From NCBI GenBank assembly GCA_018335335.1, contig JAGXKG010000001.1, positions 253,600 to 317,599 on the forward strand: 64,000 bases of DNA, read 5' to 3'. The notes under the pieces were generated by a model, which did not search any database, was not told the origin of the DNA, and was given only the letters and a program-made list of their open reading frames with translations. The stretch's first letter is position 1. Every line of letters starts with the position of its first letter. Origin of the DNA: Candidatus Thorarchaeota archaeon. GTDB lineage: Archaea > Asgardarchaeota > Thorarchaeia > Thorarchaeales > Thorarchaeaceae. Position numbers and translations under genes: made by a program. Below, piece after piece: positions 16,910 to 36,348 of the stretch.

Positions 16910-17701
16910 TTGAATGACCTAATAATTGTGAAGCTCGGCGGTTCAGTGATTACCAACAAAGGCGAATCACCCCCATCTGTCAACAACGATCGGATACATC
17001 GAATAGCACGCGAACTCGCCAATCACAATGGCCCTATGATAGCTGTGTTAGGTGGTGGGGCCCATGGTCATCAACCAGCCAGTCGCTATGGATTTGGCAA
17101 CCCTAAAACTCCAAGGCAAAAACGTTTGGCCGGTCTTCCCAAAATCCGGAACAATATGTCAATTCTTTCTTCGGAAGTAGTTGGCTCTTTGCAAGATTCG
17201 GGTCTGCCAGCTGTTGCCTTTCCACCTTTTACCTTTGCTCGTCTTAGGAATAACCACATCCAGCATTTCCCCTGTTCGTTCATAGAAAAGGCATTGAATT
17301 CCGATTTCCTCGTCGTCACTCATGGGGATGTATGTTTTGATGAAAAATTAGGAGCTTCCATATTGAGTGGAGATACGATTGTAGTATATTTGGCCAACAG
17401 ACTCAATCCAACGGGAGTTTACATCGGAACAGATGTTGATGGCGTCCATTATGAAAATCCTGATACTAATCCCAAGGCAAAAGTAATACCTGTAATACAA
17501 TCCAATGACATTGAAAAGGCCTTATCCAGCACTGGCCCATCTTCATCTGTGGATGTTACTGGTGGGATGGACAACAAAGTTAGGGAATTACTCACCATAA
17601 ATCAAAGAACAAAAATTGCCATATTCAATCTGAATATTGCTGGACGACTGTCTACTCTTCTAAAAGGTAAGACACCAATCTGTACACTCATTCAACCATG
17701 A
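16910..17701 (+). CDS. Isopentenyl phosphate kinase (amino-acid kinase family)
   Basis: 263 aa; KLGGS, VLGGGAHGH, THGD, LSGDTIVVYLAN, GTDVDGV, VDVTGGM motifs matching archaeal IPK. Confidence 0.85.
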   Translation: MNDLIIVKLGGSVITNKGESPPSVNNDRIHRIARELANHNGPMIAVLGGGAHGHQPASRYGFGNPKTPRQKRLAGLPKIRNNMSILSSEVVGSLQDSGLPAVAFPPFTFARLRNNHIQHFPCSFIEKALNSDFLVVTHGDVCFDEKLGASILSGDTIVVYLANRLNPTGVYIGTDVDGVHYENPDTNPKAKVIPVIQSNDIEKALSSTGPSSSVDVTGGMDNKVRELLTINQRTKIAIFNLNIAGRLSTLLKGKTPICTLIQP

Positions 17702-20700
17702 ACAAACTGCCTAAATTGGAAGAGATCCCTTCTTTCCAATACCTAATTGCTACATTATCTGGTATAGCATCATCATCTTCTATGATACTAGAATCTCCCA
17801 AGATACATACAACCTCATGTGTTTGACATTCATCACAAGCTGTTTCCGAAATTGAATTGGATATGCGTTTCATTCTGTTTTTTCCAGGTAATACCGCATA
17901 AGATTTGTCTCCTACACAAAAATCGAAAGGATAATGGTCCGACACAATCTCCCTTCCCCTTCTTTTCAATTCCTGCACAATAGCTTCCAAAGCTATTAAC
18001 TTGATACTTTGAAACTTCTTCGCTCCAAGCACCCAAAGACCTGGCTCCAAATTGTGTAAATTCGACTCCTTGCTCAATCTAAACAGATGACACTCCCCTG
18101 TCTCGATCATCTGGGAAAGGATTCGCATTCCTTCGCCTTTTTCCAATGGAATCGATCTTGCCCTTTTCGACTGAATGGCTGTTGTACTAATGAAACTGAG
18201 AAAATCCCCCCACTCAATTGCACCTCCAGAAACAGAAAGAAATTCCCTCAATAACCCAAACCAAATTCTTCTACCAACGCTTGTTCCCGATTTCTTGGTT
18301 GCCCCGTTGAACTGCTCCAAAGCCGACTCAATTTCGTGGCTCTTTTCCTTAGGCTCTTTCTCACCTATTTGAGAACCAGTGCACGTACTAAGCATTCTAT
18401 CAATTGAGCTCTGAAACGCAGGCACAATGGTTACCAAGTCGAATCCATCGATTTTTTCAATTCTTTCGCGAACTTTCGCTGCTGCAATGCTTCCTCTAAC
18501 TATAACATACAGCTCTTCAATTGTATTCCCCATTTTTTTCATACTTTCTTTGATTACATTGATTATTGTTTCAATAGATGGTATTCTAATCCGTTCAGGT
18601 ACTATCAAAATAGCGTTACTTCCCACAATAAAATTGGGTGTGGTTTCCGAACCATCATCTTCGAATCTTCGTATCTCATCCGACTTCTCAAGTATGTACT
18701 GCGATATTGCTGCTTCTATCGATTCGTTGGCGTTCCCCGGCACAGAGAATACAAAGCCTCCCTTAACGACAGGAATTGCTTCCCTCTGGATTATTGAGAG
18801 TGATATGAGCTCCTCGATTAGCTGCTCCCGTGTCATATCAATGTGGTCATAGTTGAGGTTCACCAACAACTCCTCCAATTGTTCTTTTGTTACAAAATCA
18901 CGAGATGCAAGATATCCGGTTACTAATCCAGATATTTCTCCTATGACATGTTCTCTTCCTTTTGATGTTCTTCCCCTTTCCACACAAACTCTCTCTTCCC
19001 CATCATGAGATACCATCATGGGAGTGTCATTGCATTCAACCCCCTCAATTATCTCTTCATCAACTCGATTGCGAATATGTGACGTAGATTCTTCCAGCCC
19101 ATATTCCGGCATCAACGTTTTGATTTCGAAGACACTCACATCTGGTAATTTGATCAAAGCATTGCCTACGGTGAGTGACTGCAAATACTCCTCCTGTCTA
19201 TCATCTAGAGAAAGATATCTTCTAGCAACCCCACTATCATACGGTAATCTAAAGGTAATTTTCGTGGAGGTATTGGCCAAAATATTCGATGATATATTGG
19301 GTCTTGTTGAAACCACCACGACACCCTGTCCAGTCGCTCTTTGAAGCATGACCATGGACTCTCCCGTTGTGACATCTGCGGCTGAACTTCTCGTGTAACT
19401 CTCGGGTACCAAATTGTAGGCCTCTTCAAGAACTACAATATGTCGAAGCCCTTCGGTTATACCTCTCTGCATGGCAGAATCAAAGACTCTTTTCACAATA
19501 ACGTTGTACAAGAGCCTCGCTGCATCCATGCCCCCAATCCGTGCTACATAGCTCAAGTCTACAATAACTCTTTCATCAAGTAGTGTTGAAATTTCCAACG
19601 TCTTTTTCCCAGGCCCAAAAACTGTAGCTAAGGGTTCCCTGAATAAGATTTGAAGCCGATTTAGCAATGCATCTCTAGTCATTTCGGAAATGTGGCCTTT
19701 AGTACCCGCAGCAAAAATCATTCGTTCAAGGGATGCCACTGTTTTCTCTTCCTCTTCTAGAACTACTTTTTCCACAGATTCTCGTAGAAGTCTTTCCATG
19801 GCGGGTGAAAGCTCTGCTGAAACACCCCTCTCGTTCAATAACTCTCTGATTATGGCGAAAGTGATATGTGCGTGTCTTTCGGGACTATCTCCTTCTGGCG
19901 CAAAAAGGTTGAGAACGAAATTATTTTCGGCACCAGGAATCAAAACATCAACGGACCCAAACCCTACCTCTCGAAGATCCGAATATTCAGAACCCTTTAC
20001 ATCGAATACTAACCATGGAATTTCCGTTTTGGCACTTAGCTCTGCAATGAGTCTCTTCACCAATGTGGTTTTCCCTGTACCTGTTGCCCCCATCACTGCT
20101 ATATGCTCTCTGAGCCAATCTTTCTTCAATCCAACCTCACTAAGACACCGAGAATTGAATACTGCCCGTCCGATTACTAACTCGTTGTTGATAGTCTCCT
20201 TTTCCGGAATAGAAAAGAATGGTACAGCCTTTCCTGTCACTACTGGCAGTTGCTGGGACGGTGTGTTGAAGTAACCAACAAGTCTCTCCAAATGTATTTT
20301 GGAGCTTTTCACAGGCCGCCTGTTCAATACTCGATAGCCGTTTCTACCTCCTAATTTTACCGATTCAAGTGAAAGATTCCCTTTTTCACCCCATATCGAT
20401 ATTAGAAGCCCCCTAACGCCTTCTTCAGCAAGCCTTAACTCAATTTGCGAGTTAGCTTGTATTGTTACGTAGATACTTGCTTCAAACCATGCATCAACAT
20501 CTCCAATTTCCTTGTACTCCTCCAGCAACCTCTCTTTCATAGCATGGTCAGAGAGTGACTCCCTCTTTTCACGCTCCTTTCTGCGAATCTTCTTCCAGTG
20601 TTTTTCCAATGCCCTTTTCTCTCTTCCAGGATTTGCGGGCTTAAATGCACAAGTCAGACTAGCATTGTAACCTTGTCTTAGAAGCCCTACTAGAAAAGTT

Positions 20701-21416
20701 CCTATCTGTGTCGCTTCTTCGTTAGGATTGATGCTCGGATTTCCAGCAACAACAATGATTTTCCTATGCGTTCCATCCCGGCTAGTTTTTTCTTGCCGCC
20801 TTGTTTCTAGATTCGGTTCACGCATGGTTTCAATAGCTTCTCTTAGTTCTCCCTCCCTCAATCTTTCTACCTCAACCGTATTGAGCGTGCTACGTAAGAT
20901 AGCTTCACATCTAGTAGATTCAATTTGGAGCTGTTGTCGCAAGCTTGTGACTGAATCTCCCCGTGCTGTTATGAATAGTCGGATGAAAGGCTCTTGGTTG
21001 ATAGTACCTACTTCATATGCCATAGACGTATAATCATCCATACCTTCACGAAGAGCAAGAAGTGCTGACACGACATACTTATGCTCTCCATTTTCGTTAA
21101 TCTTAACTGATCCAGTAACCGAATTGAGTTGAAGAACACAAGTTGCGACAATAGACCTATCCAGCTGTACAACAAGAATATCATTCTCTATCAACATCGA
21201 TATCTTCTGTGATTTGATTTTGGAACCTATTACGATACCTCCAGTAATCGGGGGAAATAGAAGAAGAAGACCTTCGACCAAGGCTCTCATAGGTACAGCT
21301 AATGGCGGCGCAACCCCTGTGATTGGCAAGACATAGGCCATTACAAAATAGAATATTGAAAATGCGGTTGAACTTGGCCATGCAATTCGTATGCACTTTA
21401 GAAACTTGACATCCAT
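17688..21416 (-). CDS. Giant membrane-anchored HerA/VirB4-like (DUF87) P-loop ATPase
   Basis: 1242 aa; two N-terminal hydrophobic helices; central Walker A IAVMGATGTGKTT and Walker B-like HIVVLEEAYNL as in HerA/VirB4/TrbE ATPases; ~450-aa C-terminal extension of unknown function. Confidence 0.6.
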   Translation of the reverse strand: MDVKFLKCIRIAWPSSTAFSIFYFVMAYVLPITGVAPPLAVPMRALVEGLLLLFPPITGGIVIGSKIKSQKISMLIENDILVVQLDRSIVATCVLQLNSVTGSVKINENGEHKYVVSALLALREGMDDYTSMAYEVGTINQEPFIRLFITARGDSVTSLRQQLQIESTRCEAILRSTLNTVEVERLREGELREAIETMREPNLETRRQEKTSRDGTHRKIIVVAGNPSINPNEEATQIGTFLVGLLRQGYNASLTCAFKPANPGREKRALEKHWKKIRRKEREKRESLSDHAMKERLLEEYKEIGDVDAWFEASIYVTIQANSQIELRLAEEGVRGLLISIWGEKGNLSLESVKLGGRNGYRVLNRRPVKSSKIHLERLVGYFNTPSQQLPVVTGKAVPFFSIPEKETINNELVIGRAVFNSRCLSEVGLKKDWLREHIAVMGATGTGKTTLVKRLIAELSAKTEIPWLVFDVKGSEYSDLREVGFGSVDVLIPGAENNFVLNLFAPEGDSPERHAHITFAIIRELLNERGVSAELSPAMERLLRESVEKVVLEEEEKTVASLERMIFAAGTKGHISEMTRDALLNRLQILFREPLATVFGPGKKTLEISTLLDERVIVDLSYVARIGGMDAARLLYNVIVKRVFDSAMQRGITEGLRHIVVLEEAYNLVPESYTRSSAADVTTGESMVMLQRATGQGVVVVSTRPNISSNILANTSTKITFRLPYDSGVARRYLSLDDRQEEYLQSLTVGNALIKLPDVSVFEIKTLMPEYGLEESTSHIRNRVDEEIIEGVECNDTPMMVSHDGEERVCVERGRTSKGREHVIGEISGLVTGYLASRDFVTKEQLEELLVNLNYDHIDMTREQLIEELISLSIIQREAIPVVKGGFVFSVPGNANESIEAAISQYILEKSDEIRRFEDDGSETTPNFIVGSNAILIVPERIRIPSIETIINVIKESMKKMGNTIEELYVIVRGSIAAAKVRERIEKIDGFDLVTIVPAFQSSIDRMLSTCTGSQIGEKEPKEKSHEIESALEQFNGATKKSGTSVGRRIWFGLLREFLSVSGGAIEWGDFLSFISTTAIQSKRARSIPLEKGEGMRILSQMIETGECHLFRLSKESNLHNLEPGLWVLGAKKFQSIKLIALEAIVQELKRRGREIVSDHYPFDFCVGDKSYAVLPGKNRMKRISNSISETACDECQTHEVVCILGDSSIIEDDDAIPDNVAIRYWKEGISSNLGSLFMVE

Positions 21417-21657
21417 GTATCAAGACACCCCACAGGCTTTCAAGTGTGTTTGCACTTCTTTCTCTCTCCGTTCTTGGTTCGAAGCTACATCTATCAGGTA
21501 ACCTGTTGAGATGTACCGTACTATGTAATATGAAGTCACCAAATAATCATGATATCAACATCTTTGCGCTAATTCCGTTTCCAGAAAAAGCATCTGCCCC
21601 TCGTTGTACGAGGTTAATAGAGCAGTGTCACAATATGAGTTGGGTTAGAATCTGGAA

Positions 21658-23658
21658 ATGTTGAGCAGTACATCTCAAGAAATCAGGATAAGTTTTGATT
21701 CAGTAGAATCAAGATTCGTTATGATAGTAGCTGTATTACTTTTCATCTTGCTGTCATACAATTCAGTTCCCGTCGCAGGAAGTGAAACTCCCTCTTTTGC
21801 TCGTGGCGAGAAGGTTACTATTGAATGCTACCTTCTTCAAAATGGAACGTACGGCGATCCAGTTCCTAACCAAAAGGTAGAATTCTTTGACCAATCGTAT
21901 GACACCTATATTGATTCATCAATAACCGACGAAAACGGTTTTGCATCTGTTCAATGGCAAATTCCGATTACCCATCCTTTGGGTGATACAATCCTTAACA
22001 TAACTTTCCGAGGGAACGAATCCTTGGCCCTTTCTCCATCAGTACAATGGACTGTTATTACTATACTATCATCTACTAATATCACACCAACCATTCATGA
22101 CACAAGTCTACATCCCTCTGATGTTCTCAATGTGTCTGTGAGACTGACTGACGACACTCGAACCCCTTTAAATTCTCAACTAATCAAGTTTTTGAGCGAT
22201 GGACAAACAATTCAATCTGGTTTCACGGATAATAATGGCTCATTCCAACTCCTTTTACAATGCAATCTATCCTGGGCTAATTTTGGTTACAATACAATCA
22301 ACATAATGTACAACGGAAATTCTACTCAATATCTTCAATCAAGTCATTCAAGTATTGGTTTTAATTTAGAGAAGAAGGCAACGAAACTCGCCATCTCAGA
22401 GAATAACACACTCTATAGCAAACTTAACGATACCCATCGTTTTTCTGTTACTCTATCATCAGGAGAAGAATTAGTAAGAAATGCAAGTATTGAGATTAGG
22501 ATTGACAATGAATATTATGACACCATATTCACTACAAGATTGGGTACAGCATTCGTAGATATCCAATTCAACGAGTCATTCACTCTAGGCCCTCATACAA
22601 TGAACGTACACTATCATGGCAGTGAACGTTATGAAGCATCGACTCTATTTCAAAAGATCATACTATCAAGCCCCTGTTTCATAGATGTTGCTGAGGAAAA
22701 AACTCTGACTGTAAATCTCCGTAATAGACTAACGGTAGAGTTACGCGACACTCTTAATCGTCCAATTCGAAGCGGGAATGTAACCATAACTGATACAATT
22801 TCAAGAAAGAATGTTTCTGGAATTCGGCAAGAAAACGGAATATATTCTTTTACTATTCTTTTGAGAAAAAAACTTGGGAGCCGAGAACTTCTGCTTCGCA
22901 TCTATGATATGCCCTACTTATCGAATCATACATATTCTTTCCAAGTTTATGTGTGGTCCAAGCCCGAATTCGAATTTCTATATTGTAGTACAATAGGATA
23001 TGCAGTACCTGGACAGACTATATCTCTCCTAATCTCATTAACTGATTTTTATGGTCCTATCGTCCACACTGAAGTTCAGATTCTGGTGAATAACAAGGAG
23101 TACGGAAAATCTCATAGTGATGGAAATGGTGAACTCTCTACCAGCATCACTATACCAAAAAAAGAAGGTCATCACTCCATTGCTTTGCATTATGGAGGAA
23201 ACAAATCTGCCTTCGTTCTAAATAGAACCCGAATTTTCAGAATTAACGCATCCCATAGCATCCCAGTTGTTCCATGGTCTATTTCAACCCGATTGATCCC
23301 CATGGAGAAGCGAATTTCTGTCAACATGATGCTGCTTGCCCTTAATGGCTCCAAAATTGAGGGTTTAAAGACTACTTACAACTGGCTAAATCAGAGTTAT
23401 CGCGCCAGAACATCAAAAAGCGGCTCATTGGAGTTTTATCTTAGGCTTCCTAATCATCCTGGTACTTATACTCTAGAATACCATATAGATTCAACTAGAG
23501 GAACAAAAGACTACGATGGTTTTCTCGAAATTGAAATAACGCTAATCGATATTAATGGTTCGAGTGTTTTTGGTTTGTTTCCTTTCACCTTATCCATAGC
23601 CTTCTCATTTTCATTAGTCTTGTTGCCGTCTCTCAGAAAAAGATATCTCTTAGGATAG
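21658..23658 (+). CDS. Secreted/surface glycoprotein with C-terminal transmembrane anchor
   Basis: 666 aa; N-terminal signal-like hydrophobic segment; >30 N-x-S/T sequons; C-terminal hydrophobic segment FGLFPFTLSIAFSFSLVLLP followed by basic tail RKRYLLG. Confidence 0.55.
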   Translation: MLSSTSQEIRISFDSVESRFVMIVAVLLFILLSYNSVPVAGSETPSFARGEKVTIECYLLQNGTYGDPVPNQKVEFFDQSYDTYIDSSITDENGFASVQWQIPITHPLGDTILNITFRGNESLALSPSVQWTVITILSSTNITPTIHDTSLHPSDVLNVSVRLTDDTRTPLNSQLIKFLSDGQTIQSGFTDNNGSFQLLLQCNLSWANFGYNTINIMYNGNSTQYLQSSHSSIGFNLEKKATKLAISENNTLYSKLNDTHRFSVTLSSGEELVRNASIEIRIDNEYYDTIFTTRLGTAFVDIQFNESFTLGPHTMNVHYHGSERYEASTLFQKIILSSPCFIDVAEEKTLTVNLRNRLTVELRDTLNRPIRSGNVTITDTISRKNVSGIRQENGIYSFTILLRKKLGSRELLLRIYDMPYLSNHTYSFQVYVWSKPEFEFLYCSTIGYAVPGQTISLLISLTDFYGPIVHTEVQILVNNKEYGKSHSDGNGELSTSITIPKKEGHHSIALHYGGNKSAFVLNRTRIFRINASHSIPVVPWSISTRLIPMEKRISVNMMLLALNGSKIEGLKTTYNWLNQSYRARTSKSGSLEFYLRLPNHPGTYTLEYHIDSTRGTKDYDGFLEIEITLIDINGSSVFGLFPFTLSIAFSFSLVLLPSLRKRYLLG

Positions 23659-23665
23659 GAATAAT

Positions 23666-23775
23666 TGGTGCTCCGGCCGGGACTTGAACCCGGGTCGGAG
23701 GATCGAGAGTCCCCCATGCTGGGCCGGACTACATTCGGTGGACTTAAGGCAAAGACCTTAGACTTCTACCGGAGC
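23666..23775 (-). tRNA. tRNA-Glu (anticodon CUC) with ~32-nt insertion near position 9/10; CCA encoded
   Basis: Acceptor GCUCCGG/CCGGAGC, anticodon arm GGGGA-CUCUCGA-UCCUC, T-arm CCGGG-UUCAAGU-CCCGG; D-arm AUGUAGUCCGGCCCAGCAU matches archaeal tRNA-Glu; extra AGAAGUCUAAGG...CCACCGA between acceptor and D-arm. Confidence 0.7.
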
Positions 23776-23976
23776 TTCTTAGCACCAGCTCGGAGCGGGA
23801 CAGCACCATTTTGAGCTCAAATAAGCCTTTCTCAACGGCATTTGGTTTTCATAGTCGATTCTTAATAACCACTGCTCTAATACTCCCATTTGTGACATCT
23901 GCAAAGAATCTTTGTATTTACAAGGAGGAAGTGGAAAAATGGTGGAGAGATACCTTCAGTCAAACCCATCAAATTG

Positions 23977-24204
23977 TTAGGGATTCAACAGATTTGATAA
24001 ATTACTCCAACTGTCTTCCAATAATCCAAGCAGATCTGAGATGACATCTTGAGCCCATCCAGTAGCTTGAAGTATAACTGCAATTACGATAGAAACGGTA
24101 ACTACTGCTATTCCCAACAATAGACTCTCTTCAACAAGCGGGCCACCTGTAGTATCTTGCAGAGGGTTGCTTCTTCCTGTCATTATCAACATTCTCAATA
24201 GCAA
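23977..24204 (-). CDS. Small membrane protein, possible Flp/class-III-signal pilin-like
   Basis: 75 aa; ...TTGG-PLVEES-LLLGIAVVTVSIVIAVIL: Gly followed by acidic residues then a ~22-aa hydrophobic helix, like Flp-pilin G/xxxxEY...hydrophobic; directly downstream of a TadA/FlaI-type ATPase. Confidence 0.3.
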   Translation of the reverse strand: MLLRMLIMTGRSNPLQDTTGGPLVEESLLLGIAVVTVSIVIAVILQATGWAQDVISDLLGLLEDSWSNLSNLLNP

Positions 24205-24379
24205 GTTGTTAATGTGCTATTTTAACCCAACAGAGACGGATTATTCTATCCATATTTCAAAATTATGATTTTCTTGAAAATAGTCAATTTTCTTCGGTTC
24301 CACAATTCACCAATGAGAGTGTGTCTCAACATCGACCGTGATCAAGAATCTCCCCCGCAACCGAAACATAGATTCTTCT

Positions 24380-26050
24380 TTATAGCTCTCCGAGGATTCG
24401 TGGCCAATCATCATGATATCCGCTTATTAACACTTCAAGATTCTCTTCAATTGAAACCTCATTGTTCTTAGAAATATCGTTTTCATCTGGTTTGAGAATG
24501 TTAGTGTGATTTAATTTTCCATTCTTCTCATAGAGAATGGTCAAACCGTCAAAAACGATCAAACCATTTTTTCTTATACGTTGAATCTTCGCCACCTCTG
24601 CAACATATCGTTCCGAAACACCTGGCTCTCTCTGTTTCATTGTAATTACCAAATCCATCATTGCAATCTCGTGTTCACTAATTCCATGTGAATCTCTCCA
24701 ACGCGATATCAAACATGATGAGTTTCTACTATGGCAGGTTTGGATTGTTCGTAGCCCGGCCGCTATTGCTTGAAAAAGAGCTGAACTATGCTCGGCTGTC
24801 TGAATTTCTCCAAGAATCATGTAATCTGGAGAGCGATGTAGGCATTTGACGATTTCATTGGTCTTGCTCAGCCCTGCTTTACCCTCATCATAAGGTGGAA
24901 CCCTGAATCTTGTCTGTTTATGATTCGCCCATAGACGACTTTCAATTACATCCTCAATATACAGTTTCCGCCAGTGGGGAGGAGTCATCATATCAAGGGC
25001 ATTTAGCAGAGTAGTTTTTCCACTGCCTGGCTCACCAGTAATTGTTATGTTTGCTCTTCCACGTATAGCTGATATCAGAAAAGCAGCAATTCCTATTGTT
25101 AGGGTTCCATTCTTCAAGAGATCTACAACGGTAAACGGATTTGAGCGTGCACGCCTAATTTCTAGGGTTAGTCCATCTGGGCTTAATGGAGGAATAGCAG
25201 CGGATACCCGCAAGAGTACATCGGCAAGTCCAATTTCGGTCTTCAATGATGGATTGTTATGATCGAGATGGAAGTTACTCTCAGCGCGTACCAAAGTCAT
25301 GAAACGATTGACATCCTCATTGCTAAAGGTAACTTCGGTATCACAACGTCCTAGTCGACAATGATCGAAATAGATATGGGCCCCTGGTCTACTCAAGAAT
25401 ATCTCCTCAACCTCCTCATCAAACAGTAGGGGGAAGATAGGTGCGAGAATAGATTTGCGATGAGCAACGATGTGTGATATTCGTGTTTTCGTGTCGTCAT
25501 TCATTTCAGGAATAATCTCAGAAAGATTTTCAAGGATGATCTCCTTTTCGCTAGTTAACCGTTCATTCAAACCTCCCCTTACAAAGGGGCTATCCCTTTC
25601 TATTTGAGGAAACTCCATACAAACCTCCTCAAACAAGGAATGTTCGAGCGGCGTTCTTAGCATTGGTATTGCATGATGAACTGGTACATTGCTATGATTA
25701 TCTCTAACGAAATATACTAGATACGCTCCTACTCGATATACATCCACAATTTCTGATGAAGAAAGACACATGCTTTCGCCCAAATATGCGGGATCCCATT
25801 CCTTTGTTAACCAAGGTGGCCCTTTCACTTGTTTCGTATTCGAAGGCGCAAGATGAATATACCCCCTCTCAGTTTCAAGTATCACTAAACGAGCATCACA
25901 TTCTTTCTGTTCTTTCCATTGCTGGATTCTCTGACATTTTCCATTTCTGTGACTTTCACATTCAACACAACGGGTTTCAGGACATTCTAGTAGCTCTACA
26001 TCCTGCCTGTTTCTTACCATTCTCTTCTTGCCAACTGTTTCCGAACCCAT
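24380..26050 (-). CDS. Secretion-superfamily ATPase (FlaI/PilB/VirB11/TadA family) with N-terminal Cys-rich zinc-ribbon
   Basis: 556 aa; Walker A TGEPGSGKTTLLNAL, Asp box IEDVIE, RSPDYMILGEIQTAE (= RxxPDxIxxGEiR), His-box-like TCHSRN; N-terminal CPETRCVECESHRNGKC. Confidence 0.75.
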   Translation of the reverse strand: MGSETVGKKRMVRNRQDVELLECPETRCVECESHRNGKCQRIQQWKEQKECDARLVILETERGYIHLAPSNTKQVKGPPWLTKEWDPAYLGESMCLSSSEIVDVYRVGAYLVYFVRDNHSNVPVHHAIPMLRTPLEHSLFEEVCMEFPQIERDSPFVRGGLNERLTSEKEIILENLSEIIPEMNDDTKTRISHIVAHRKSILAPIFPLLFDEEVEEIFLSRPGAHIYFDHCRLGRCDTEVTFSNEDVNRFMTLVRAESNFHLDHNNPSLKTEIGLADVLLRVSAAIPPLSPDGLTLEIRRARSNPFTVVDLLKNGTLTIGIAAFLISAIRGRANITITGEPGSGKTTLLNALDMMTPPHWRKLYIEDVIESRLWANHKQTRFRVPPYDEGKAGLSKTNEIVKCLHRSPDYMILGEIQTAEHSSALFQAIAAGLRTIQTCHSRNSSCLISRWRDSHGISEHEIAMMDLVITMKQREPGVSERYVAEVAKIQRIRKNGLIVFDGLTILYEKNGKLNHTNILKPDENDISKNNEVSIEENLEVLISGYHDDWPRILGEL

Positions 26051-26210: not shown

Positions 26211-27236
26211 CTACTGACTTGTTATCCTAATACATTTCTTGATTACTCCGAAATGATCCCGAATACTATATTCTGCTACATCGGTTGCTTCAGAAGTGAG
26301 TTTCTGTGTAAGTGCTGATTGTTTTCCTGCTTTGACAGATATGACTCTGTCAGCGGCATAGGCTGCGGACACAGCAAAAATAAATGGATTTCTGCCACCT
26401 CTTCTTGAGGATGGAAATCCCCTTAAAATCGTCATTAGAATTTCCCTCAACTTGTTTTCGTATTCCTTTAATTCCCAGCCTCTTGATTGAACCCTCTCAA
26501 CTACTTCTGAATTATTCATCAACATAGATAGTATTCTAGGCACATATTCCCTCGGCTTCCGAATCCTTGGAACATAGCCGGTTGCTGACCGAAGATTAAT
26601 CGCTTCCCTGACTATGGTCCGAACACTGACTCTGTGACCACATTTATCGAAGGTTTCTGCTATCTCCTCGAGTGTTATGGGCGCCTCTTCTTTGAATTCT
26701 CTAACGGCCATGAGAAGACAAACTGCAATCAAAATGATATTGTTAGTCATCTTGTCTTCTGCTTCGTTCACCAGTTTCTTGTACAAGTAGGCGGTTCGAT
26801 TTCGAACCTGTTCGCTTATCATCAGGAGCTTAGAAACGCGATTGAGCGTTCTCAGTGCTCGATACTTAGCTTCATCGTCCCCTATTCTGATTCTAGTGCT
26901 ATATACACTCTTCAAACGTTGGAATTTCTTCTGGACTTTTCCTGATAATGCACTTCCTTTAGAATCACGGAAATACTTGTCTCTGTGAAATCCAATATAG
27001 CTTCCCAATCCATCTACTATATGCATTCTATTTCCTAACGATACATACATCGCCGCATCGGGGCTATCATCTGACTTCTGTTGCCCCATCTGATAAGTCG
27101 GATCTACGTATTCTCTTGATACTACTAGTCCACAGTCTAGACAGACGATATACCCCTCACTTGTTGCGAGAGCACCAGAACAATCGGGACAGGTACCAAG
27201 AAGCTCTCGATATGAATCAGCGGAATTGTCTGTCAA
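26211..27236 (-). CDS. tfb: Transcription initiation factor IIB (TFB)
   Basis: 341 aa; N-terminal Zn ribbon CPDCSG...CLDCG, B-reader, two cyclin-like repeats. Confidence 0.9.
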   Translation of the reverse strand: MTDNSADSYRELLGTCPDCSGALATSEGYIVCLDCGLVVSREYVDPTYQMGQQKSDDSPDAAMYVSLGNRMHIVDGLGSYIGFHRDKYFRDSKGSALSGKVQKKFQRLKSVYSTRIRIGDDEAKYRALRTLNRVSKLLMISEQVRNRTAYLYKKLVNEAEDKMTNNIILIAVCLLMAVREFKEEAPITLEEIAETFDKCGHRVSVRTIVREAINLRSATGYVPRIRKPREYVPRILSMLMNNSEVVERVQSRGWELKEYENKLREILMTILRGFPSSRRGGRNPFIFAVSAAYAADRVISVKAGKQSALTQKLTSEATDVAEYSIRDHFGVIKKCIRITSQ

Positions 27237-27983: not shown

Positions 27984-30656
27984 ATGCGAGTCAAGCTCCT
28001 GCTATCCGTTCAAATATCATGTCTTGTCCTTCTAGCTTTCGTTATGCCAGTTTCAGCCTTCTATTTTCAACTTGATTACTTCCAGACAGATCAGCTGGTT
28101 TATGAAGTGGGAGAAACCATTGAAATGGCCGCCAAGCTTACTGCAGATTTTGGAAGTGATGGTTGGTGTTATGTTTCATTTACTGTGTCTGAAGATTCAC
28201 GACAAATCTACGAAGACGCCTATTTCATTCCTCCTTCTCCCGAACCAAGAGTTCTTCAGTCTTCTTTTGTATTAACGTCCAATACCGTTTCACCAGGTAT
28301 GAATGGCAGTACTGGACATGCGATGTTTGATGTTGAAATGTATGACAAGTACACTCATGGTGAAAGTGAAACCATTCAAATCAACTTTACAAGAGGCGAG
28401 CTATTGGCTTCACCAATCAATCCACTCGAATTCGAATATGGATTGAATCATACATTTGTATTCAAATTAGGATCTAGATACAATCAGGACGTGTTTGAGG
28501 ATGACGTTCCCGTTATGGCAAATCTATATGACTCTGGCAATCGATGTGTTGGCAACTGGTTACCGTCAGTAAATGCCACCGGCCATATCCATTTCGACCT
28601 CAATAATGCAAGTCTTCCGACAGGGGATTACAACTTACGTCTAGAAACTAATGGTACTGATTCATTTGTTCCTTTCTCTAATTCATTTATTGTGTCTATT
28701 TTACCTGCAAACTCCTCACTTACTGTTCTATCTGCAGACTCATCTGTATACTGTCTATCTTCTGACGGAACACATTCCGATTCTGCAAATATAGTTGTTC
28801 AACATCTTAATGGAGAAAACAACCCAATCACTGATAGCTCACTTACATGGTCAACCGCCTTTTCAAGCGGAACAATGAACTCCCTACAGGATGGCAAATA
28901 TAACTGTTCCATTCCCTTTGAAGTTGCTCCTGGTAACTATAGCATCATTATTCATGCAACCAATCCAAGCTATACGTCTGTAAATGTGAGCTTGATAATC
29001 GAAGCTGAAACTCGCCCTATTGACTTTAATATTTCACTAAAAGATAAGGCGCTGGCAGGAAAAAGTGTTGAATTCATCTTATCTGTCCAGGATTTGTTGG
29101 CTAATGAAAACGTGGCAAACCATCCTCTTTTCTTAGAGCTAATGAACAACAACTACTCCATATCTACACCTTTGTTATATACAAACGAATCCGGGATTTT
29201 GTGTTACAACTTCTCGATTCCCCAAGAAATGTGGGGTTCAAGCTCTCTTTTCATCATCTCTAATGAATCAGCATTCTATACTAACAACAACTTCTCCCAT
29301 AGTTTCACTATCTATTATCTTCCCATCATTATAACACAAAATGTGACACAGGCTTTTTTGGATAGCGAAATAGCAATGAATACAACAGTCTTAAATCCAC
29401 TCTATATGCCCGTTTCCGAAATTCAGATTGTAGTAACCGATTGTCGAAACAATACTTTGACGACGGCTTTCACTGACCTCGAAGGCATAGCTAACCTCAG
29501 CTGGAGAGTGAACTCATCCTACTCAACTGGCCCATATGATTTTTGCTTTCACTTAGCATCTTCCCCCGCCAAGTATTCTGAAGAACGAATGTACTGGCAT
29601 ACAATCAATCTCTACCACCCACTAGTTTTCAATTTACAGAATCATTCTCTAGAAACTCTTAGGAACTCAACTTTGACCTTCTCCTTTCAAGTAGATTCTG
29701 AGAATACATATTCTACTTCCGTCGACATTCTACTAACCAACTATGATATCCGTTGCAATCTATCAATCGAAATCTCTACGAGTTCAGCGAAAAATGCAAG
29801 CTTGAAAATACCCACCAATATTTCTTTAGGCCCACACCAAATCAGTTATGAATCGCTCAACACAAGCTACAAGTTCAGAAATCCTTCCTATTTCACTTTG
29901 ATAGTAATAGAAAAAATGAATGCAAGCTGTTCGGATTTTCAAGCTACGTATAACAATGAACTATCATTTGACCTGCTAACGGTTGATTGGGATAATACAA
30001 GCATATCTACAGTGTATGTTACTGCAGAAATTGGAGGGGTACGGATTGCAACCAACATCTTGGCAAACCTGACTCAAACTCCCAACGTTCAAATCAGCTT
30101 GCCTTTGCGTCTTCCTCCGGGACAGCATCAGCTTTTGTTAAATGTTTGTCACCCTTATCGAGTCAATCAGACTATATCTACACAGATAGTCATATGGATG
30201 GAGACACGTATTACAATTACTACACTCGAAGTTCAAGAATTATATGCATCATCTCCTGCTATAACTCAGGATACTCTACGCAATATCTCAGATGGATCTA
30301 TCACGCGCCCTCCACCAATCTTTCTCAATGGCTCCACATCAACTACCCCTTCAGTTGCCCGAGACACCTCTCGACTCAATTGTCCTAAGCTCAGCTCAGG
30401 AACCAATAGTTGTTCTACTGTGGATGCAAAATCCAAAACCTCATCATCCGGGAATGGCCAGACTGTTCTAAGCCTCAGAGATTTTAATGAAGATTGTTCA
30501 TGGTTTTCTGCAATTACTTGTTCTACTGTTCTTGAAGTACACCCAAATGAGATTATGCCCCATTCCGCTTTCTCAGGACCTGTGACGACCGTGTCTTTCA
30601 GAAAATGGGAGTTATTCCTGATTTTCGTAGTTATTCGCCGAACCAACTCATCATGA
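27984..30656 (+). CDS. Large secreted surface glycoprotein (3' end uncertain; real gene probably ends before ~30266)
   Basis: 890-aa ORF; signal peptide MRVKLLLSVQISCLVLLAFVMPVSA; very dense N-x-S/T sequons; last ~130 codons are low-complexity and antisense to korA, so likely read-through. Confidence 0.5.
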   Translation: MRVKLLLSVQISCLVLLAFVMPVSAFYFQLDYFQTDQLVYEVGETIEMAAKLTADFGSDGWCYVSFTVSEDSRQIYEDAYFIPPSPEPRVLQSSFVLTSNTVSPGMNGSTGHAMFDVEMYDKYTHGESETIQINFTRGELLASPINPLEFEYGLNHTFVFKLGSRYNQDVFEDDVPVMANLYDSGNRCVGNWLPSVNATGHIHFDLNNASLPTGDYNLRLETNGTDSFVPFSNSFIVSILPANSSLTVLSADSSVYCLSSDGTHSDSANIVVQHLNGENNPITDSSLTWSTAFSSGTMNSLQDGKYNCSIPFEVAPGNYSIIIHATNPSYTSVNVSLIIEAETRPIDFNISLKDKALAGKSVEFILSVQDLLANENVANHPLFLELMNNNYSISTPLLYTNESGILCYNFSIPQEMWGSSSLFIISNESAFYTNNNFSHSFTIYYLPIIITQNVTQAFLDSEIAMNTTVLNPLYMPVSEIQIVVTDCRNNTLTTAFTDLEGIANLSWRVNSSYSTGPYDFCFHLASSPAKYSEERMYWHTINLYHPLVFNLQNHSLETLRNSTLTFSFQVDSENTYSTSVDILLTNYDIRCNLSIEISTSSAKNASLKIPTNISLGPHQISYESLNTSYKFRNPSYFTLIVIEKMNASCSDFQATYNNELSFDLLTVDWDNTSISTVYVTAEIGGVRIATNILANLTQTPNVQISLPLRLPPGQHQLLLNVCHPYRVNQTISTQIVIWMETRITITTLEVQELYASSPAITQDTLRNISDGSITRPPPIFLNGSTSTTPSVARDTSRLNCPKLSSGTNSCSTVDAKSKTSSSGNGQTVLSLRDFNEDCSWFSAITCSTVLEVHPNEIMPHSAFSGPVTTVSFRKWELFLIFVVIRRTNSS

Positions 30657-31501
30657 ACTTCCGGGTCTGCAGTTTCCCTGAATCCTTTTCTATCGTGAGT
30701 TGATCCAGTTATTAGCAATTTGTGCCCATCCCCAAATCTTGGCATAATCGAATGTCCTGTGTTGTCTACTGTTCCGAATGGTAAGTCACCTTCCTTGGCC
30801 AGTTTTCGTGATACAGTCCTATCTATTGTATCATCAATTTGCACCCTCTCTCTGGAATGTGCGACCACTTCGTCAGCCAAGATAATTACTGGATGTCTTA
30901 GTTTTTCGGCAATTTCAAATCCTCTGATTGTAAGATTATACATTTCTTGCGCAGAATTAGGAGCTAGGACAACACTTTCGTGATCTCCATGTGTGCCCCA
31001 CCTAGATTGCATCAAATCTCCTTGAGCTGCCTTGGTAGCTTGACCCGTACTGGGACCTGTTCTCTGAACGTTTACTATAACACATGGTGTCTCAGTCATA
31101 ATTGCATATCCGAGATTCTCCTGCATCAAACTGAAACCGGGCCCTGAGGTGGCAGTCATCGACATTTTTCCACCCCATGAAGCCCCTATAATCGCTGAGA
31201 TGGCGCCCATCTCGTCTTCCATTTGAAGATATACGCCATCTTCTTCAGGGAGTCTTTCCGACATTACCTCTGCAATTTCAGACGCGGGGGTTATCGGATA
31301 TCCCGAAAAGAAGCGACAACCTGCAGCGAGAGCCCCTTCAGCACAGGCTTTGTTACCTTGCCAAAAATTTACTGAAAGGTTCTTAGAAGACATTGATGTG
31401 ACACTCAGAAAATGGTTTGATGCGAGAACTAGATAAGGCTTCACATGGTGGCCATCTATTGATTCTTTCCTAGGCACGGATTCATCTTCTTGGATATCCA
31501 A
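30266..31501 (-). CDS. korA: 2-oxoacid:ferredoxin oxidoreductase alpha subunit (KorA/PorA type), no adjacent beta subunit
   Basis: GNKACAEGALAAGCRFFSGYPITPASEI N-terminus, QRTGPSTGQATK, C-terminal domain III; true start probably internal Met (MSSKNLS...). Confidence 0.8.
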   Translation of the reverse strand: MDIQEDESVPRKESIDGHHVKPYLVLASNHFLSVTSMSSKNLSVNFWQGNKACAEGALAAGCRFFSGYPITPASEIAEVMSERLPEEDGVYLQMEDEMGAISAIIGASWGGKMSMTATSGPGFSLMQENLGYAIMTETPCVIVNVQRTGPSTGQATKAAQGDLMQSRWGTHGDHESVVLAPNSAQEMYNLTIRGFEIAEKLRHPVIILADEVVAHSRERVQIDDTIDRTVSRKLAKEGDLPFGTVDNTGHSIMPRFGDGHKLLITGSTHDRKGFRETADPEVHDELVRRITTKIRNNSHFLKDTVVTGPEKAEWGIISFGCTSRTVEQVIAENHEQSSLKSLRLRTVWPFPDDEVLDFASTVEQLLVPELSLGQLSREVSRATEGVVDVEPLRKIGGGRVIDPSEILRRVS

Positions 31502-31844: not shown

Positions 31845-33068
31845 TTGAACCTTCAAAATTCTTTGAATGTAATGCCAGTAGATTTTGTTGAAGATGAACT
31901 TGGTAGACATACAGTATTCAAGTCGGAGCAATATCTATCAATAGATTATGTACCAGAGACCTTGCCTCATCGAGAGAATGAGCTTAGGACACTAGCTCGG
32001 AGCTTCAAAACCCTGATAACCTCACCTGGGAAAACAAGCCACAAATTCATAATTGAAGGTCCTGTTGGTACTGGTAAAACCGCCGTTACAAAACGCTTTG
32101 CGGAGCAAATGCTTCGTGCTGCGAGAAGAAGAAACATTCATCTCCACAAAATACATGTAAATTGCAGAGTAAACAAGAGCAAATACTTGGTCTATCTGCG
32201 AATCCTCAAGGAATTCAAACCCAAATTCCCTCGGAGAGGGCATTCCCCCGAGGAGCTTCTTCAACTGATAATGGATGTTCTTGATTCTGAAGATAGGTAC
32301 CTTCTGCTTATCCTTGACGAGCTTGACTATTTCATAACACAAAAGGGTGGAAGCATAGTCTACGATTTAACGCGTTTGAATGACAATCGCCTCAATTCTC
32401 CCCAAAGGCTTTCAATGATTGGCATCGGGCGGGACATACCTCTAGATGAATCCGCATTCGATTCTAGTACATTGAGTACTTTGCAGCGCAATATTCTACG
32501 GTTTGAGAAATATAACTCAGAAGCACTTTACGACATCGTTAGTCAGCGGTCAGAAATGGCCTTCAAAGACAATACTGTAATGGAAGAAACCCTTCAGGTT
32601 ATTTCTGACATAGCTTCTGAACGTGGTGATGCCAGATACGCCATAGAGATTCTTTGGCGTGCTGGAAAACAGGCTGATACAGAGCGTTCTGATGTTGTGA
32701 TACCGGATTTTGCACGAAAGGCTAAAGCTGATACACACCCGGAGCTAAGAATGGAGGTTTTCTCAACTCTGCCACTACAGAATAAGCTTCTATTGTTGGC
32801 TGCAGCACGCCAGTTGAAAGAAGTACGAAGTGCATATGTAACAATGGGTGAAGTTGAAGAGATGTATCGAACTATTTGTGAAGAATATGATGAAGCCCCC
32901 CGTGCGCATACTCAGATTTGGGAATGGGTTCAGGATTTGAATGCACATGGCGTGATTGACACAAAACGATCCGGTGAAGGACAACGTGGGCAGACAACAC
33001 TCATTGGTCTCTCAGATGTGCCTGCAGGAATGCTGGAAGCATTTTTGCTCGACTTCTTGAATGAATAG
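31845..33068 (+). CDS. orc1/cdc6: Orc1/Cdc6 replication initiator
   Basis: 407 aa; AAA+ Walker A GPVGTGKT, Walker B LILDELD, sensor motifs, C-terminal winged helix. Confidence 0.9.
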   Translation: MNLQNSLNVMPVDFVEDELGRHTVFKSEQYLSIDYVPETLPHRENELRTLARSFKTLITSPGKTSHKFIIEGPVGTGKTAVTKRFAEQMLRAARRRNIHLHKIHVNCRVNKSKYLVYLRILKEFKPKFPRRGHSPEELLQLIMDVLDSEDRYLLLILDELDYFITQKGGSIVYDLTRLNDNRLNSPQRLSMIGIGRDIPLDESAFDSSTLSTLQRNILRFEKYNSEALYDIVSQRSEMAFKDNTVMEETLQVISDIASERGDARYAIEILWRAGKQADTERSDVVIPDFARKAKADTHPELRMEVFSTLPLQNKLLLLAAARQLKEVRSAYVTMGEVEEMYRTICEEYDEAPRAHTQIWEWVQDLNAHGVIDTKRSGEGQRGQTTLIGLSDVPAGMLEAFLLDFLNE

Positions 33069-33385: not shown

Positions 33386-34195
33386 ATGAGCTCATACTTA
33401 GTTCGTGTTTTCTACCTCGGAAACCGTTATCATGGTTCACAAATACAACCTAATCTAGCAACCATTCAAGGGGAGCTCATTCGTGCCTTTTGTGATTGGA
33501 GTGGTGAAGAACATACAGCAAAAACAATACAGCTTGCCGGGAGAACAGATCGTGGTGTTCATAGTCTAGGCCAAATCGGCATTGTAAACACGAAGAAGAC
33601 CTTGGAACTTGAAGAAGTGAATAGAATCCTTCCTGATGATATAGTTCTCTGGGCAGCTTCTGAAGCGCCCCCGAACTTCAATGTACGTTATGACATTCTA
33701 CTTCGACATTACAGATACTATTGGTCATCCAGTGAACAACTTGATGTCACGAAAATGAAGAAAGCTGCTCAGCAGTTAGTGGGCACTCATGATTTTTCAC
33801 GTCTCTCCAAACCCGACCCAAATCGTACCAACATCTCCACCATCCTAAATATCGCTGTCACAAACCAAGATGACCTCTTCGTAACTGATATACACGGAAC
33901 CAATTTTTTGTGGAAAATGGTTCGGAAGATTGTTAGCTTATTAATCGAAATTGGAATGCATAAGATGAACCCTTCAATCATTGGAAAACTGTTATCAGGA
34001 CAGGGTATTTCGGGGGGAATCCATCCTGCGCCCCCAGAATGCCTTGTTCTGATGGAATCGGTGGTACCTCTCGAAATGAAATCGAATATCAGTGCTCTAT
34101 ATCGAATTCGCGGAAAGATTCGCGATTACCGAGACATGCTTCACCGCGTGACTAGAACTCTAAATGGCCTCAATGACGATTTGCCATTTTCCTAA
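33386..34195 (+). CDS. truA: tRNA pseudouridine(38-40) synthase TruA/Pus1 family
   Basis: 269 aa; catalytic GRTDRGVHS motif; overall TruA architecture. Confidence 0.85.
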   Translation: MSSYLVRVFYLGNRYHGSQIQPNLATIQGELIRAFCDWSGEEHTAKTIQLAGRTDRGVHSLGQIGIVNTKKTLELEEVNRILPDDIVLWAASEAPPNFNVRYDILLRHYRYYWSSSEQLDVTKMKKAAQQLVGTHDFSRLSKPDPNRTNISTILNIAVTNQDDLFVTDIHGTNFLWKMVRKIVSLLIEIGMHKMNPSIIGKLLSGQGISGGIHPAPPECLVLMESVVPLEMKSNISALYRIRGKIRDYRDMLHRVTRTLNGLNDDLPFS

Positions 34196-35393: not shown

Positions 35394-36348
35394 CCGTACT
35401 ATTCTCCAATCCTATGTATGCTAATAAAGCTGCGAGTTGAATTTCGCCGCTGGATCCTTCCGAAATACGAAACTCCGCCTCTGCTGCTTTCTCTAATGTT
35501 GACATCGTCCTCTTTTTGGACATATCTAGACCAAGAAGTTCTCGATGAATCTGTCTAACCAAATCTATGGGTGATACACCATTCTGATAAATCAGGCTCT
35601 TCATAGAGGCAATTGCTTCTTCATATTTTCCCTCTGACGAGGATTTGAGAAGACCACGAACTTCCTTTGGACTAGCACGACCAGATATGCTGTAAACAAC
35701 AGGGCCAGTGACTTTCTCGCCAGTAGAAGAAGCTGCTTGTAAGAGATTGATCGCAGCACGCATGTCTCCATTTGCCAGATACAATATGGCCTTTATCCCT
35801 TCTTCTTCAGTACTTACATTCTCCGCATCTGCGATGTATTCCAATCTTTCTGTGATGGCTTCGTCATCTAATGGTGAAAATTTGAAAACCGCACACCTAG
35901 ACTGAATGGGTGGTATTATTCTGCTTGAATAGTTGCAAATCAAAATCATTCTGCATGAACTAGCGTATGATTCCATTGTACGTCTAAGTGCATGTTGTGC
36001 ATCTCCTGTGAGATGATCTGCTTCATCCAGAACTAGAATCTTGAAGGGTGCATCACCCGAAGGTATTGATCTTGCAAAGCTTTTGATTTGGTTTCTTACT
36101 ACATCGATTCCTCTTTCATCGCTTGCATTCAGTTCCATGAAATTGCGTCCAAAGGTATCTCCGAATAGGTCTCTAGCCATTGCCATGCCTGCTGTAGTTT
36201 TACTAGTCCCAGGCGGTCCCGCAAAAAGGCAATGGGGTACAGCCCCATTTTCCACGAATCGCATTAGTCTTTGTACAACTGTTTCTTGTCCTATGATTTC
36301 TGAAAGCGTTTTTGGGCGGTACTTCTCGGTCCAGAGATCCAGTTCCAT
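35386..36348 (-). CDS. rfcS: Replication factor C small subunit
   Basis: 320 aa; CLFAGPPGTSKTT, VLDEADHLT, SRC motif (QSRCAVFKF); no intein. Confidence 0.9.
   Translation of the reverse strand: MELDLWTEKYRPKTLSEIIGQETVVQRLMRFVENGAVPHCLFAGPPGTSKTTAGMAMARDLFGDTFGRNFMELNASDERGIDVVRNQIKSFARSIPSGDAPFKILVLDEADHLTGDAQHALRRTMESYASSCRMILICNYSSRIIPPIQSRCAVFKFSPLDDEAITERLEYIADAENVSTEEEGIKAILYLANGDMRAAINLLQAASSTGEKVTGPVVYSISGRASPKEVRGLLKSSSEGKYEEAIASMKSLIYQNGVSPIDLVRQIHRELLGLDMSKKRTMSTLEKAAEAEFRISEGSSGEIQLAALLAYIGLENSTDE

Follow-up and report, generated by a model that had tools for sequence, protein, structure and literature searches.

A gene set of Thorarchaeota joins a type IV filament ATPase core to a CedD-like translocase, and its parts recur across Asgard and TACK archaea

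We analyzed a 64-kb window (the whole stretch of DNA under study) of a Thorarchaeota (Asgard) metagenome-assembled genome, in which one interval encodes a large membrane-anchored ATPase of the HerA/VirB4 superfamily, an ATPase of the type IV filament (TFF) class, a tiny Flp-like membrane protein, a TFIIB paralogue, surface proteins and a tRNA-Glu (Table 1). NCBI proteins labelled Candidatus Thorarchaeota, encoded on a 448,733-bp contig, match the 1242-aa, 556-aa and 68-aa products with 100% identity. We tentatively interpret this interval as the Thorarchaeota (hereafter Thor) version of an old, vertically inherited machine of Asgard and TACK archaea, in which a Tad-like filament core is coupled to a CedD-like translocase, maybe for DNA uptake or exchange. 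We are fairly confident that the TFF ATPase, the small protein and the CedD-like ATPase form a functionally linked, vertically inherited module; a function in DNA import, suggested by analogy, is held much less firmly. The joining of a TFF core resembling the published subclade 4D to a CedD-like translocase is new, being a previously undescribed combination of components that have known relatives. Re-examination of the open reading frame (ORF) calls and of the tRNA confirmed, at the same coordinates, all features listed in a preliminary description of this interval.

The evidence that carries this interpretation comes from the distribution of the genes outside Thorarchaeota. A profile of the TFF ATPase subfamily (A4) retrieved 80 loci from species-representative genomes, 72 of them non-Thor and eight of Thor type (four labelled Thor), and the contents of these loci were counted in six-frame ORFs using profiles built in this analysis. 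The Asgard labels are Sif, Borr, Jord, Frey, Odin, Heimdall, Hod, Hermod and generic Promethearchaeota/Promethearchaeati (one Atabeyarchaeia); the TACK labels are Bathy, Brock, Thermoprotei, Methanomethylicia, Nezha, Culexmicrobium and ‘Nitrososphaerota’. A first T2SSF-like membrane protein is encoded in 66 of the 72 non-Thor loci, usually with a second membrane protein behind it, and in none of the eight Thor-type loci. Homologues of the 68-aa protein occur in 45 of the 72 non-Thor loci, a divergent TFIIB-like protein in 57, a DUF87 ATPase (E < 1e-5 to the Thor profile) in 16 and an Rpb8-like protein in 13, and each of these four is found in all Thor-type loci. Members of the two membrane-protein families match PF00482 in 14 of 36 and 10 of 33 cases (best E 5.6e-8 and 8.4e-5, respectively), and hhalign relates the two families to each other with 72% probability (E 3.4e-5). 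Their sequences indicate a TadB/TadC-like pair of half-size platform proteins.

The arrangement of these genes differs between lineages. TACK loci with a DUF87 gene (e.g. L037, L041, L051, L054, L059, L065 and L066) have the order ATPase, T2SSF, T2SSF′, small ORF and DUF87, and the small ORF overlaps the start of DUF87 by 11 nt in the Thermoprotei loci L051 and L054. Five loci labelled Heimdall, Bathyarchaeia or Promethearchaeati (L040, L042, L043, L044 and L046) have the order small ORF, TFB-like gene, ATPase, T2SSF and T2SSF′, with DUF87 lying ~7 kb further on the other strand in all of them except L044, the contig of which stops earlier. The small ORF is divergent from the ATPase gene in the Jord and Frey loci. 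We consider the parts to be functionally linked because they recur in such differing arrangements across phyla. This recurrence supports the suggestion, made in the preliminary description, that the genes are a real linked set mixing type IV pilus-like and type IV secretion-like parts. Such a set had not been described for Thorarchaeota. As in Thor, no T2SSF gene adjoins the ATPase in L032 and L033 (Odin), in which the TFIIB-like, ATPase and small genes are consecutive, nor in L035 (Atabeyarchaeia), in which the TFIIB-like and ATPase genes are adjacent and the small ORF lies ~9 kb upstream. Since these three loci share this feature, the platform may have been lost or relocated on more than one occasion.

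The 1242-aa ATPase begins with two transmembrane (TM) helices at residues about 2-33 and 44-69, followed by an N-terminal domain (about 70-400), a DUF87/HerA ATPase core (about 405-770) in which the motifs Walker A (GATGTGKTT) and Walker B (VVLEEA) are both intact, and a C-terminal extension of ~440 aa (about 820-1242) with winged-helix and restriction-endonuclease-like folds. Both the paired N-terminal helices and the HerA/VirB4-type core had been anticipated. Top Foldseek matches are to TrwK/VirB4 of R388 (E 5e-19 over ~850 alignment columns, with low TM-scores of 0.28-0.38), and the fold is that of the DNA translocases VirB4, HerA and TrwB. The best NCBIfam match is CedD (the CedD/TedD model NF053655; 61.7 bits, E 5e-17), a membrane-bound HerA/FtsK-family ATPase; genetic work has shown that neither S. 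acidocaldarius nor Sa. islandicus can import DNA without it (PMC11823120, PMC11868833). The same model is the top match for the DUF87 proteins of the Heimdall-labelled L040 (40 bits) and of Borr (44 bits), and the Thermoprotei positional orthologue reaches 253.9 bits (E 3e-75). Scores were far under the cutoff for every NCBIfam model of the VirB4, VirB11 and VirD4 families, VirB4_CagE included (21.5 bits, cutoff 643), and the CedB model gave 24.4 bits against a cutoff of 700. Of the likeness to VirB3-VirB4 fusions or CedB that had been proposed, the resemblance to the VirB4 fold over the whole length therefore stands, and CedD replaces CedB as the nearest family. The locus holds a single HerA-family gene. 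The nearest non-Thor word-index matches of the big ATPase, P0105 and P0106, were set aside as uninformative, with only the P-loop domain in common and unrelated contexts, one conjugative-like and the other TIR/defence-like. The Thor locus L013 (GCA_024276825.1, 17201-19160) has the big ATPase in two ORFs of 574 and 662 aa, the result of a frameshift or an assembly error.

The 556-aa ATPase is a member of the T2SSE family (PF00437, 64.5 bits against a cutoff of 24.9). Its best NCBIfam match is TadA (93.4 bits), ahead of FlaI (82.6 bits), both under their equivalog cutoffs, and its matches in the Protein Data Bank (PDB) are 2oap, FlaI and CpaF. In an exhaustive phmmer search the Thor ATPases reduce to ~5 representatives, beyond which lies a continuum of archaeal ATPases at ~40% identity. 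These comparisons indicate that it belongs to a TFF ATPase subfamily spread over Asgard and TACK archaea. The unusual N-terminal ‘zinc ribbon’ of the preliminary description corresponds to a Cys4 motif, C-x4-C-x2-C-x7-C, kept in 94-97% of 111 Thor homologues and found in none of the 72 non-Thor relatives, a pattern indicative of a Thor-specific gain. Precomputed annotation assigns PF27713 (UCP018868) to almost all ATPases of the subfamily (e.g. P0109).

The small ORF, previously delimited as 75 aa (23977-24204), is a real gene that likely starts at the ATG at 24183, which gives 68 aa. It is co-directional with the 556-aa ATPase gene and lies ~200 nt downstream of it, and homologues make up 374 database clusters at ≥66% identity. 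The protein starts with a hydrophilic leader of 12 aa that varies between homologues, and GGPLVEESLLLG..ATGWAQ is the same in all of them; behind the G|GPLVEE motif come a single hydrophobic helix and, at the C-terminus, an amphipathic one (alignment A3). The motif reads [KR][GA]|[SG]PL[VIL]EE across other lineages, and three loci labelled only Promethearchaeota or uncultured archaeon have GG|NLVEYALLIG, which fits the G/xxxxEY pattern of Flp. One of these three, L085, also carries a weak Peptidase_A24-like gene (E 5e-4). The Flp-like N-terminus that had been pointed out is hence present as a G/xxxxE motif followed by a hydrophobic helix, and hhalign pairs DExGG|PLVEE of the small protein with DESGA|TAIEY of Flp; homology to Flp is another matter, and is considered with the alternatives below. 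In loci labelled only Promethearchaeota or uncultured archaeon we also observed ORFs of 134-142 aa, with an N-terminal NLLEKSLLLGFSIF hydrophobic segment, between the ATPase gene and a fused platform gene (~507 aa, 7-8 TM helices): L085 (11523-11945), L078, L082, L083, L086, L087, L090, L093 and L095. Such an ORF may encode a second pilin-like protein; the Peptidase_A24-like gene lies ~3 kb downstream of it.

Directly upstream of the 556-aa ATPase gene, on the same strand, is the gene of the 341-aa TFIIB-like protein (PRK00423, 60.5 bits against a cutoff of 384), which retains a Zn ribbon and cyclin repeats. In the loci counted above its homologues adjoin the ATPase gene, and an association of TFIIB and ATPase genes is known from type IV pilus loci (PMC4858521). 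This paralogue is probably a dedicated regulator or partner. Further upstream is an Rpb8/RpoG-like gene with a weak RpoG match (E 0.006); the L003 homologue gives a ‘faint’ match to PF16992, and the homologues found by jackhmmer in the 13 non-Thor loci are likewise upstream of TFB-like genes. A full-length Orc1/Cdc6 gene is within 10 kb of the ATPase family in 32 of the 80 Asgard and TACK loci (25 of 72 non-Thor, seven of eight Thor-type), which suggests an old location of the family close to a replication origin.

The closest described system, as far as gene content and sequence can indicate, is subclade 4D of Pyrobaculum and Thermoproteus, which consists of an ATPase (arCOG05558) with an extra N-terminal Cys-rich domain and a 4-5-TM protein, maybe a diverged TadC, and has no pilins; a TFIIB homologue is in the operon with an RPB8 gene alongside, and its authors suggested a non-pilus, perhaps transcription-related function (PMC4858521). 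This view of a ‘subsystem 4D’ was repeated recently, in a study that calls TFF systems largely absent from Asgard archaea (Sivabalasarma & Albers 2026, bioRxiv 10.64898/2026.04.22.720090). Both reports are silent on a partner of the HerA/VirB4/CedD type and on a small Flp-like ORF. The Thor locus resembles 4D in the Cys-rich N-terminus of its ATPase, in the TFIIB-like and RpoG-like genes of the same predicted operon, in having no canonical pilin genes, and in a suspected non-pilus or repurposed function. It differs in that 4D was described as a two-component system of two genera, whereas the loci reported here span Asgard and TACK archaea and have two T2SSF-like proteins, a Flp-like small ORF and often a CedD-like ATPase. 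Thor loci, on their side, have no adjacent 4-5-TM TadC-like partner (0/8), and their Cys4 motif is not shared by the non-Thor relatives. The statement that the interval matches no single described system accordingly holds for the combination as a whole, not for its RpoG-like/TFIIB-like/ATPase core, which matches 4D, nor for the big ATPase, which is nearest to CedD.

With the Ced and Ted systems the locus shares a chromosomally fixed, vertically inherited, membrane-bound ATPase of the HerA/VirB4 family, and the Sulfolobales system acts in concert with Ups, a type IV pilus, and with TFB3, a paralogue of TFB. Unlike Ced and Ted, the Thor locus has neither CedB nor a CedA/VirB6-like polytopic channel; its 68-aa protein, to judge from the sequence, has one TM helix (plus the amphipathic helix) and a class-III-like motif, whereas the VirB2-like CedA1 and TedC are two-helix pilins; its big ATPase is far from the CedD cutoff of 600 bits and has the extra winged-helix/restriction-endonuclease-like tail; and its pilus-type ATPase is encoded within the locus itself instead of by a separate ups operon. 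Likeness to Tad/Flp (type IVc) pili lies in an ATPase whose best family is TadA, in the two half-size platform proteins of the non-Thor relatives, and in a candidate subunit that would measure ~55 aa after processing, has a G/xxxxE[EY] motif and carries DExG at the end of its leader. The differences are that the small protein has no significant sequence homology to Flp, that there are no secretin or outer-membrane parts (as expected in archaea), that the Thor locus is devoid of platform and peptidase, and that the system is joined to a HerA/VirB4-type ATPase and a TFIIB paralogue. Bacterial type IV secretion systems also pair a VirB11-class hexameric ATPase with a VirB4-fold ATPase, which has two N-terminal TM helices in VirB3-VirB4 fusions, but equivalents of VirB6, VirB8 and VirB10 and a relaxase are missing here, and the locus is not on a mobile element.

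A working model can be drawn by analogy with Ups pili, Ced and TFB3 of Sulfolobales and with bacterial competence pili. The core of the machine would comprise the TFF ATPase, the two half-size TadB/TadC-like platform proteins and the tiny Flp-like subunit, with the TFIIB paralogue and the Rpb8-like gene alongside. The TFF ATPase would drive the assembly or extraction of a short filament or pseudopilus of 68-aa subunits, and the CedD-like ATPase, hexameric and anchored by its two TM helices, would bind DNA through its C-terminal domains and pump it across the membrane. Surface contact could be mediated by the Ig-like (immunoglobulin-like) glycoprotein. TFB3 controls the ups and ced genes in Sulfolobales, and the TFIIB paralogue may provide a comparable dedicated transcriptional control. 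The DNA substrate, the formation of a filament and physical coupling are what we infer from homology, folds, synteny and co-occurrence across phyla. The Thor version is a derived one: its locus is devoid of platform genes, its ATPase bears a Cys4 motif, its translocase ends in a winged-helix/nuclease-like tail, and an Ig-like glycoprotein is paired with the translocase.

We find most interesting the cross-phylum set of a Flp-like micro-protein, a TadB/TadC-like pair, a CedD-like partner and a TFIIB paralogue. Surveys have treated ‘subsystem 4D’ as a pilin-less remnant confined to a few Thermoproteales. Our comparison suggests instead that the family of the TFF ATPase is widespread in Asgard and TACK archaea; that a conserved protein of 60-85 aa with a Flp-type motif is its candidate subunit, one so small that gene callers and pilin models may miss it; and that it is repeatedly linked to a CedD relative and a private TFIIB paralogue. 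A more specific proposal is that the locus is the Thor form of an ancestral DNA-import or exchange machine of the common ancestor of TACK and Asgard archaea. This machine, situated near replication genes, would combine a CedD-like translocase and a TFIIB paralogue of its own with a Tad-like filament, the Flp-like micro-pilin of which has so far been overlooked; in Thor the canonical platform would have been lost, and the enlarged VirB4-like ATPase possibly took over its role. We regard this proposal, taken as a whole, as unlikely. Were it true, the archaea most closely related to eukaryotes would possess a far older and integrated counterpart of the Ups/Ced/TFB3 ‘community DNA repair’ trio of Sulfolobales, and no archaeal system would stand closer to the bacterial Tad/Flp pilus than a member of this family. 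DNA exchange, if it is the function, would make the locus a testable candidate for this process in Asgard archaea and an entry point to the question of how bacterial Tad pili originated from archaea; if it is not, there is still a universal, single-copy, membrane-bound HerA-family motor in Thorarchaeota.

Within Thorarchaeota the locus is strongly conserved. Starting from homologues of the two ATPases and of the small protein, we retrieved nine Thor loci (L001-L007, L011 and L012), with big-ATPase identities of 38-43% where measured, and the Thor-type set also includes the eight loci from species-representative genomes (one of which, L060, is the same contig as L003). Their common order is Orc1/Cdc6, POR, surface protein, Rpb8-like, TFIIB-like, ATPase, small ORF, tRNA-Glu, Ig-like (opposite strand) and DUF87, followed by isopentenyl phosphate kinase, ribosomal protein S10 and GlmS. 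This order is conserved in 16 of the 17 Thor-type loci. The exception, L013, has one inversion that flipped the block from the Ig-like gene to GlmS relative to the ATPase gene and small ORF, and left the pairs ATPase/small ORF and Ig-like/DUF87 intact. Because the whole ~24-kb block is syntenic within Thor, housekeeping genes included, adjacency in these genomes is weak evidence of linkage. We conclude that the locus is an inherited, lineage-wide gene set and not a mobile element.

Several observations weigh against a filament machine coupled to DNA transport. A T2SSF platform, a prepilin peptidase and a VirB6/CedA-like channel are absent from the 64-kb window and from all eight Thor-type genome loci, which leaves both a canonical pilus machine and a Ced machine incomplete here. 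The preliminary description was right about the missing platform gene, and the window as a whole encodes no polytopic membrane protein (>2 predicted TM helices). Pfam Flp_Fap does not match the small protein, a PDB profile search gave no match, and hhalign against two annotated Phyllobacterium Flp pilins gave a probability of 4.8% for the alignment quoted above, so that homology to Flp is not established by sequence statistics; in addition, an identity of at least 66% in the mature protein is far above the usual conservation of exposed pilins. All CedD scores are under the equivalog cutoff, that of the Thor protein about tenfold, and only the 16 non-Thor loci counted above have DUF87 within 10 kb of the ATPase. 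Universal single-copy conservation beside Orc1/Cdc6, RFC, MCM and an RNA polymerase subunit gene fits a housekeeping role, e.g. in chromosome handling, equally well. A related explanation, which we judge less probable than not but deserving serious attention, holds that old synteny juxtaposed two separate functions, namely a repurposed non-pilus set of TFF ATPase, small protein, TFIIB and Rpb8, perhaps with a transcriptional or membrane-related task as proposed for 4D (PMC4858521), and an independent, membrane-anchored chromosome translocase that would serve segregation or division in the manner of FtsK. It would account for the missing platform genes, agrees with the published reading of 4D as a repurposed remnant (PMC4858521; bioRxiv 10.64898/2026.04.22.720090) and with the frequent proximity of Orc1/Cdc6, and draws on the succession of TM helices, linker, motor and winged helix in the big ATPase, which parallels FtsK; the complete synteny of the Thor block and the L013 inversion, which parts the two gene pairs, are also in its favour. 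Against it, distant TACK lineages again have DUF87 in one operon with the ATPase and the small ORF, amid other neighbouring genes and, in the two Thermoprotei loci, even with overlapping frames, and the nearest characterised family of the big ATPase is CedD, not FtsK. An ordinary adhesive Tad/Flp-like pilus, with its platform and peptidase elsewhere in the genome and DUF87 as an accessory assembly or secretion ATPase devoid of a DNA role, seems improbable to us. The affinity of the TFF ATPase to TadA, FlaI and CpaF, the TadB/TadC-like pair in relatives and the Flp-type motif would all suit such a pilus, as would Ig-like glycoproteins acting as adhesins or S-layer partners, given that C-terminally anchored S-layer-like proteins are common accessories of archaeal type IV pilus loci (PMC4858521). 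It is difficult to reconcile with the extreme conservation of the mature small protein, the association with TFIIB and Rpb8, and a big ATPase that has a winged-helix/restriction-endonuclease-like tail and affinity to CedD.

Two further explanations are very improbable in view of the conservation within Thorarchaeota. The presence of a tRNA gene within the cluster, together with VirB4-like and VirB11-like ATPases typical of conjugative elements, had led to the suggestion that the interval is the remnant of a conjugative or other mobile element integrated at tRNA-Glu. The 3′ half of the tRNA has a single copy in the window even when up to three mismatches are allowed, so no direct repeat of an att site is apparent; other direct repeats in the window are at chance level only, G+C is flat throughout (0.39-0.44), the VirB4-like profile finds no relative among IMG/VR viral contigs, and none of the neighbours annotated by Pfam is an integrase. 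Moreover, even Thor relatives whose big ATPase is as little as 38% identical keep the gene order and the housekeeping flanks. Conserved core synteny without mobility signatures, which the preliminary description had itself named as evidence against its proposal, is thus what was found, and the idea of an integrated element is abandoned. There is just as little reason to believe in a HerA-based anti-phage defence system. With PADLOC, matches in the locus were confined to generic HerA and mad8 models (54 bits or less), and none of the neighbours matched the defence partners Sir2, DUF4297, NurA or Dnd. We consider such a system unlikely because these matches reflect generic P-loop similarity and come with no effector partner; furthermore, the single-copy gene is universal and fixed in position in the lineage, unlike defence islands.

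Table 1. Features of the Thor locus, with positions in the 64-kb window
Feature	Position	Strand	Basis
1242-aa membrane-anchored HerA/VirB4-superfamily ATPase, CedD-like	17688..21416	-	DUF87/HerA core
666-aa Ig-like surface protein	21658..23658	+	Big_3_5 and Big_1 matches, sequons
tRNA-Glu(CUC) with non-canonical intron and encoded CCA	23666..23775	-	ARAGORN after in-silico splicing
68-aa Flp-like small membrane protein	23977..24183	-	374 clusters, alignment A3
556-aa type IV filament (T2SSE/TadA/FlaI-class) ATPase, N-terminal Cys4	24380..26050	-	PF00437
341-aa divergent TFIIB/TFB paralogue	26211..27236	-	PRK00423, Zn ribbon and cyclin repeats
Rpb8/RpoG-like protein, ~121-130 aa	27503..27895	-	Weak RpoG match
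890-aa second sequon-rich surface protein	27984..30656	+	Sequons, weak MG2 match

The replication genes beside the locus are Orc1/Cdc6 (31845-33068), RFC (34170-36348) and MCM (37296-39368). Of the two surface proteins, the 666-aa one starts with a hydrophobic (signal or TM) segment, continues with about six Ig-like domains and is anchored by a TM segment at its C-terminus. Shuffled versions of its sequence contain 8.9 ± 2.7 N-x-S/T sequons, compared with 21 in the protein itself, in agreement with the divergent, sequon-rich and C-terminally anchored protein noted before, and its gene is head-to-head with the DUF87 gene in all Thor-type loci, the rearranged L013 included. This protein is probably an adhesin or an S-layer-like accessory. 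The 890-aa protein (34 sequons against 15.1 ± 3.4) keeps its position in Thor loci and is a possible accessory of the module, although its membership is uncertain. Its ORF overlaps tail-to-tail, over ~390 nt (30266-30656), with a POR-like ORF on the other strand (30266-31501, -), and the same overlap measures 435 nt in L060 and 124 nt in L001. The last ~130 aa of the 890-aa protein have no TM anchor and may be read-through.

The tRNA-Glu gene lies inside the locus yet is part of neither the machine nor an att site. As proposed, it bears an intron, which is ~32 nt long (about 23734-23765) and situated in the region of the D-arm rather than in the anticodon loop. The gene is missed by ARAGORN, with or without the intron option, and by Rfam at the gathering threshold. 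We consider the intron non-canonical because ARAGORN calls Glu(ctc) only once these ~32 nt are removed after about position 10. The position of the intron is kept in L001 and L003, and its sequence differs. We also observed a 12-nt element resembling the 5′ end of the tRNA, 10-15 nt upstream of the mature 5′ end, which reads GCTCCGAGCTGG in the window (about 23776-23830, - strand) and GCTCCGGACTGG in the Thor loci L001 (7590-7625) and L003 (7660-7690). It lies downstream of a TATA-like AAAGGCTTATTT box and, unlike the intron sequence, is conserved.

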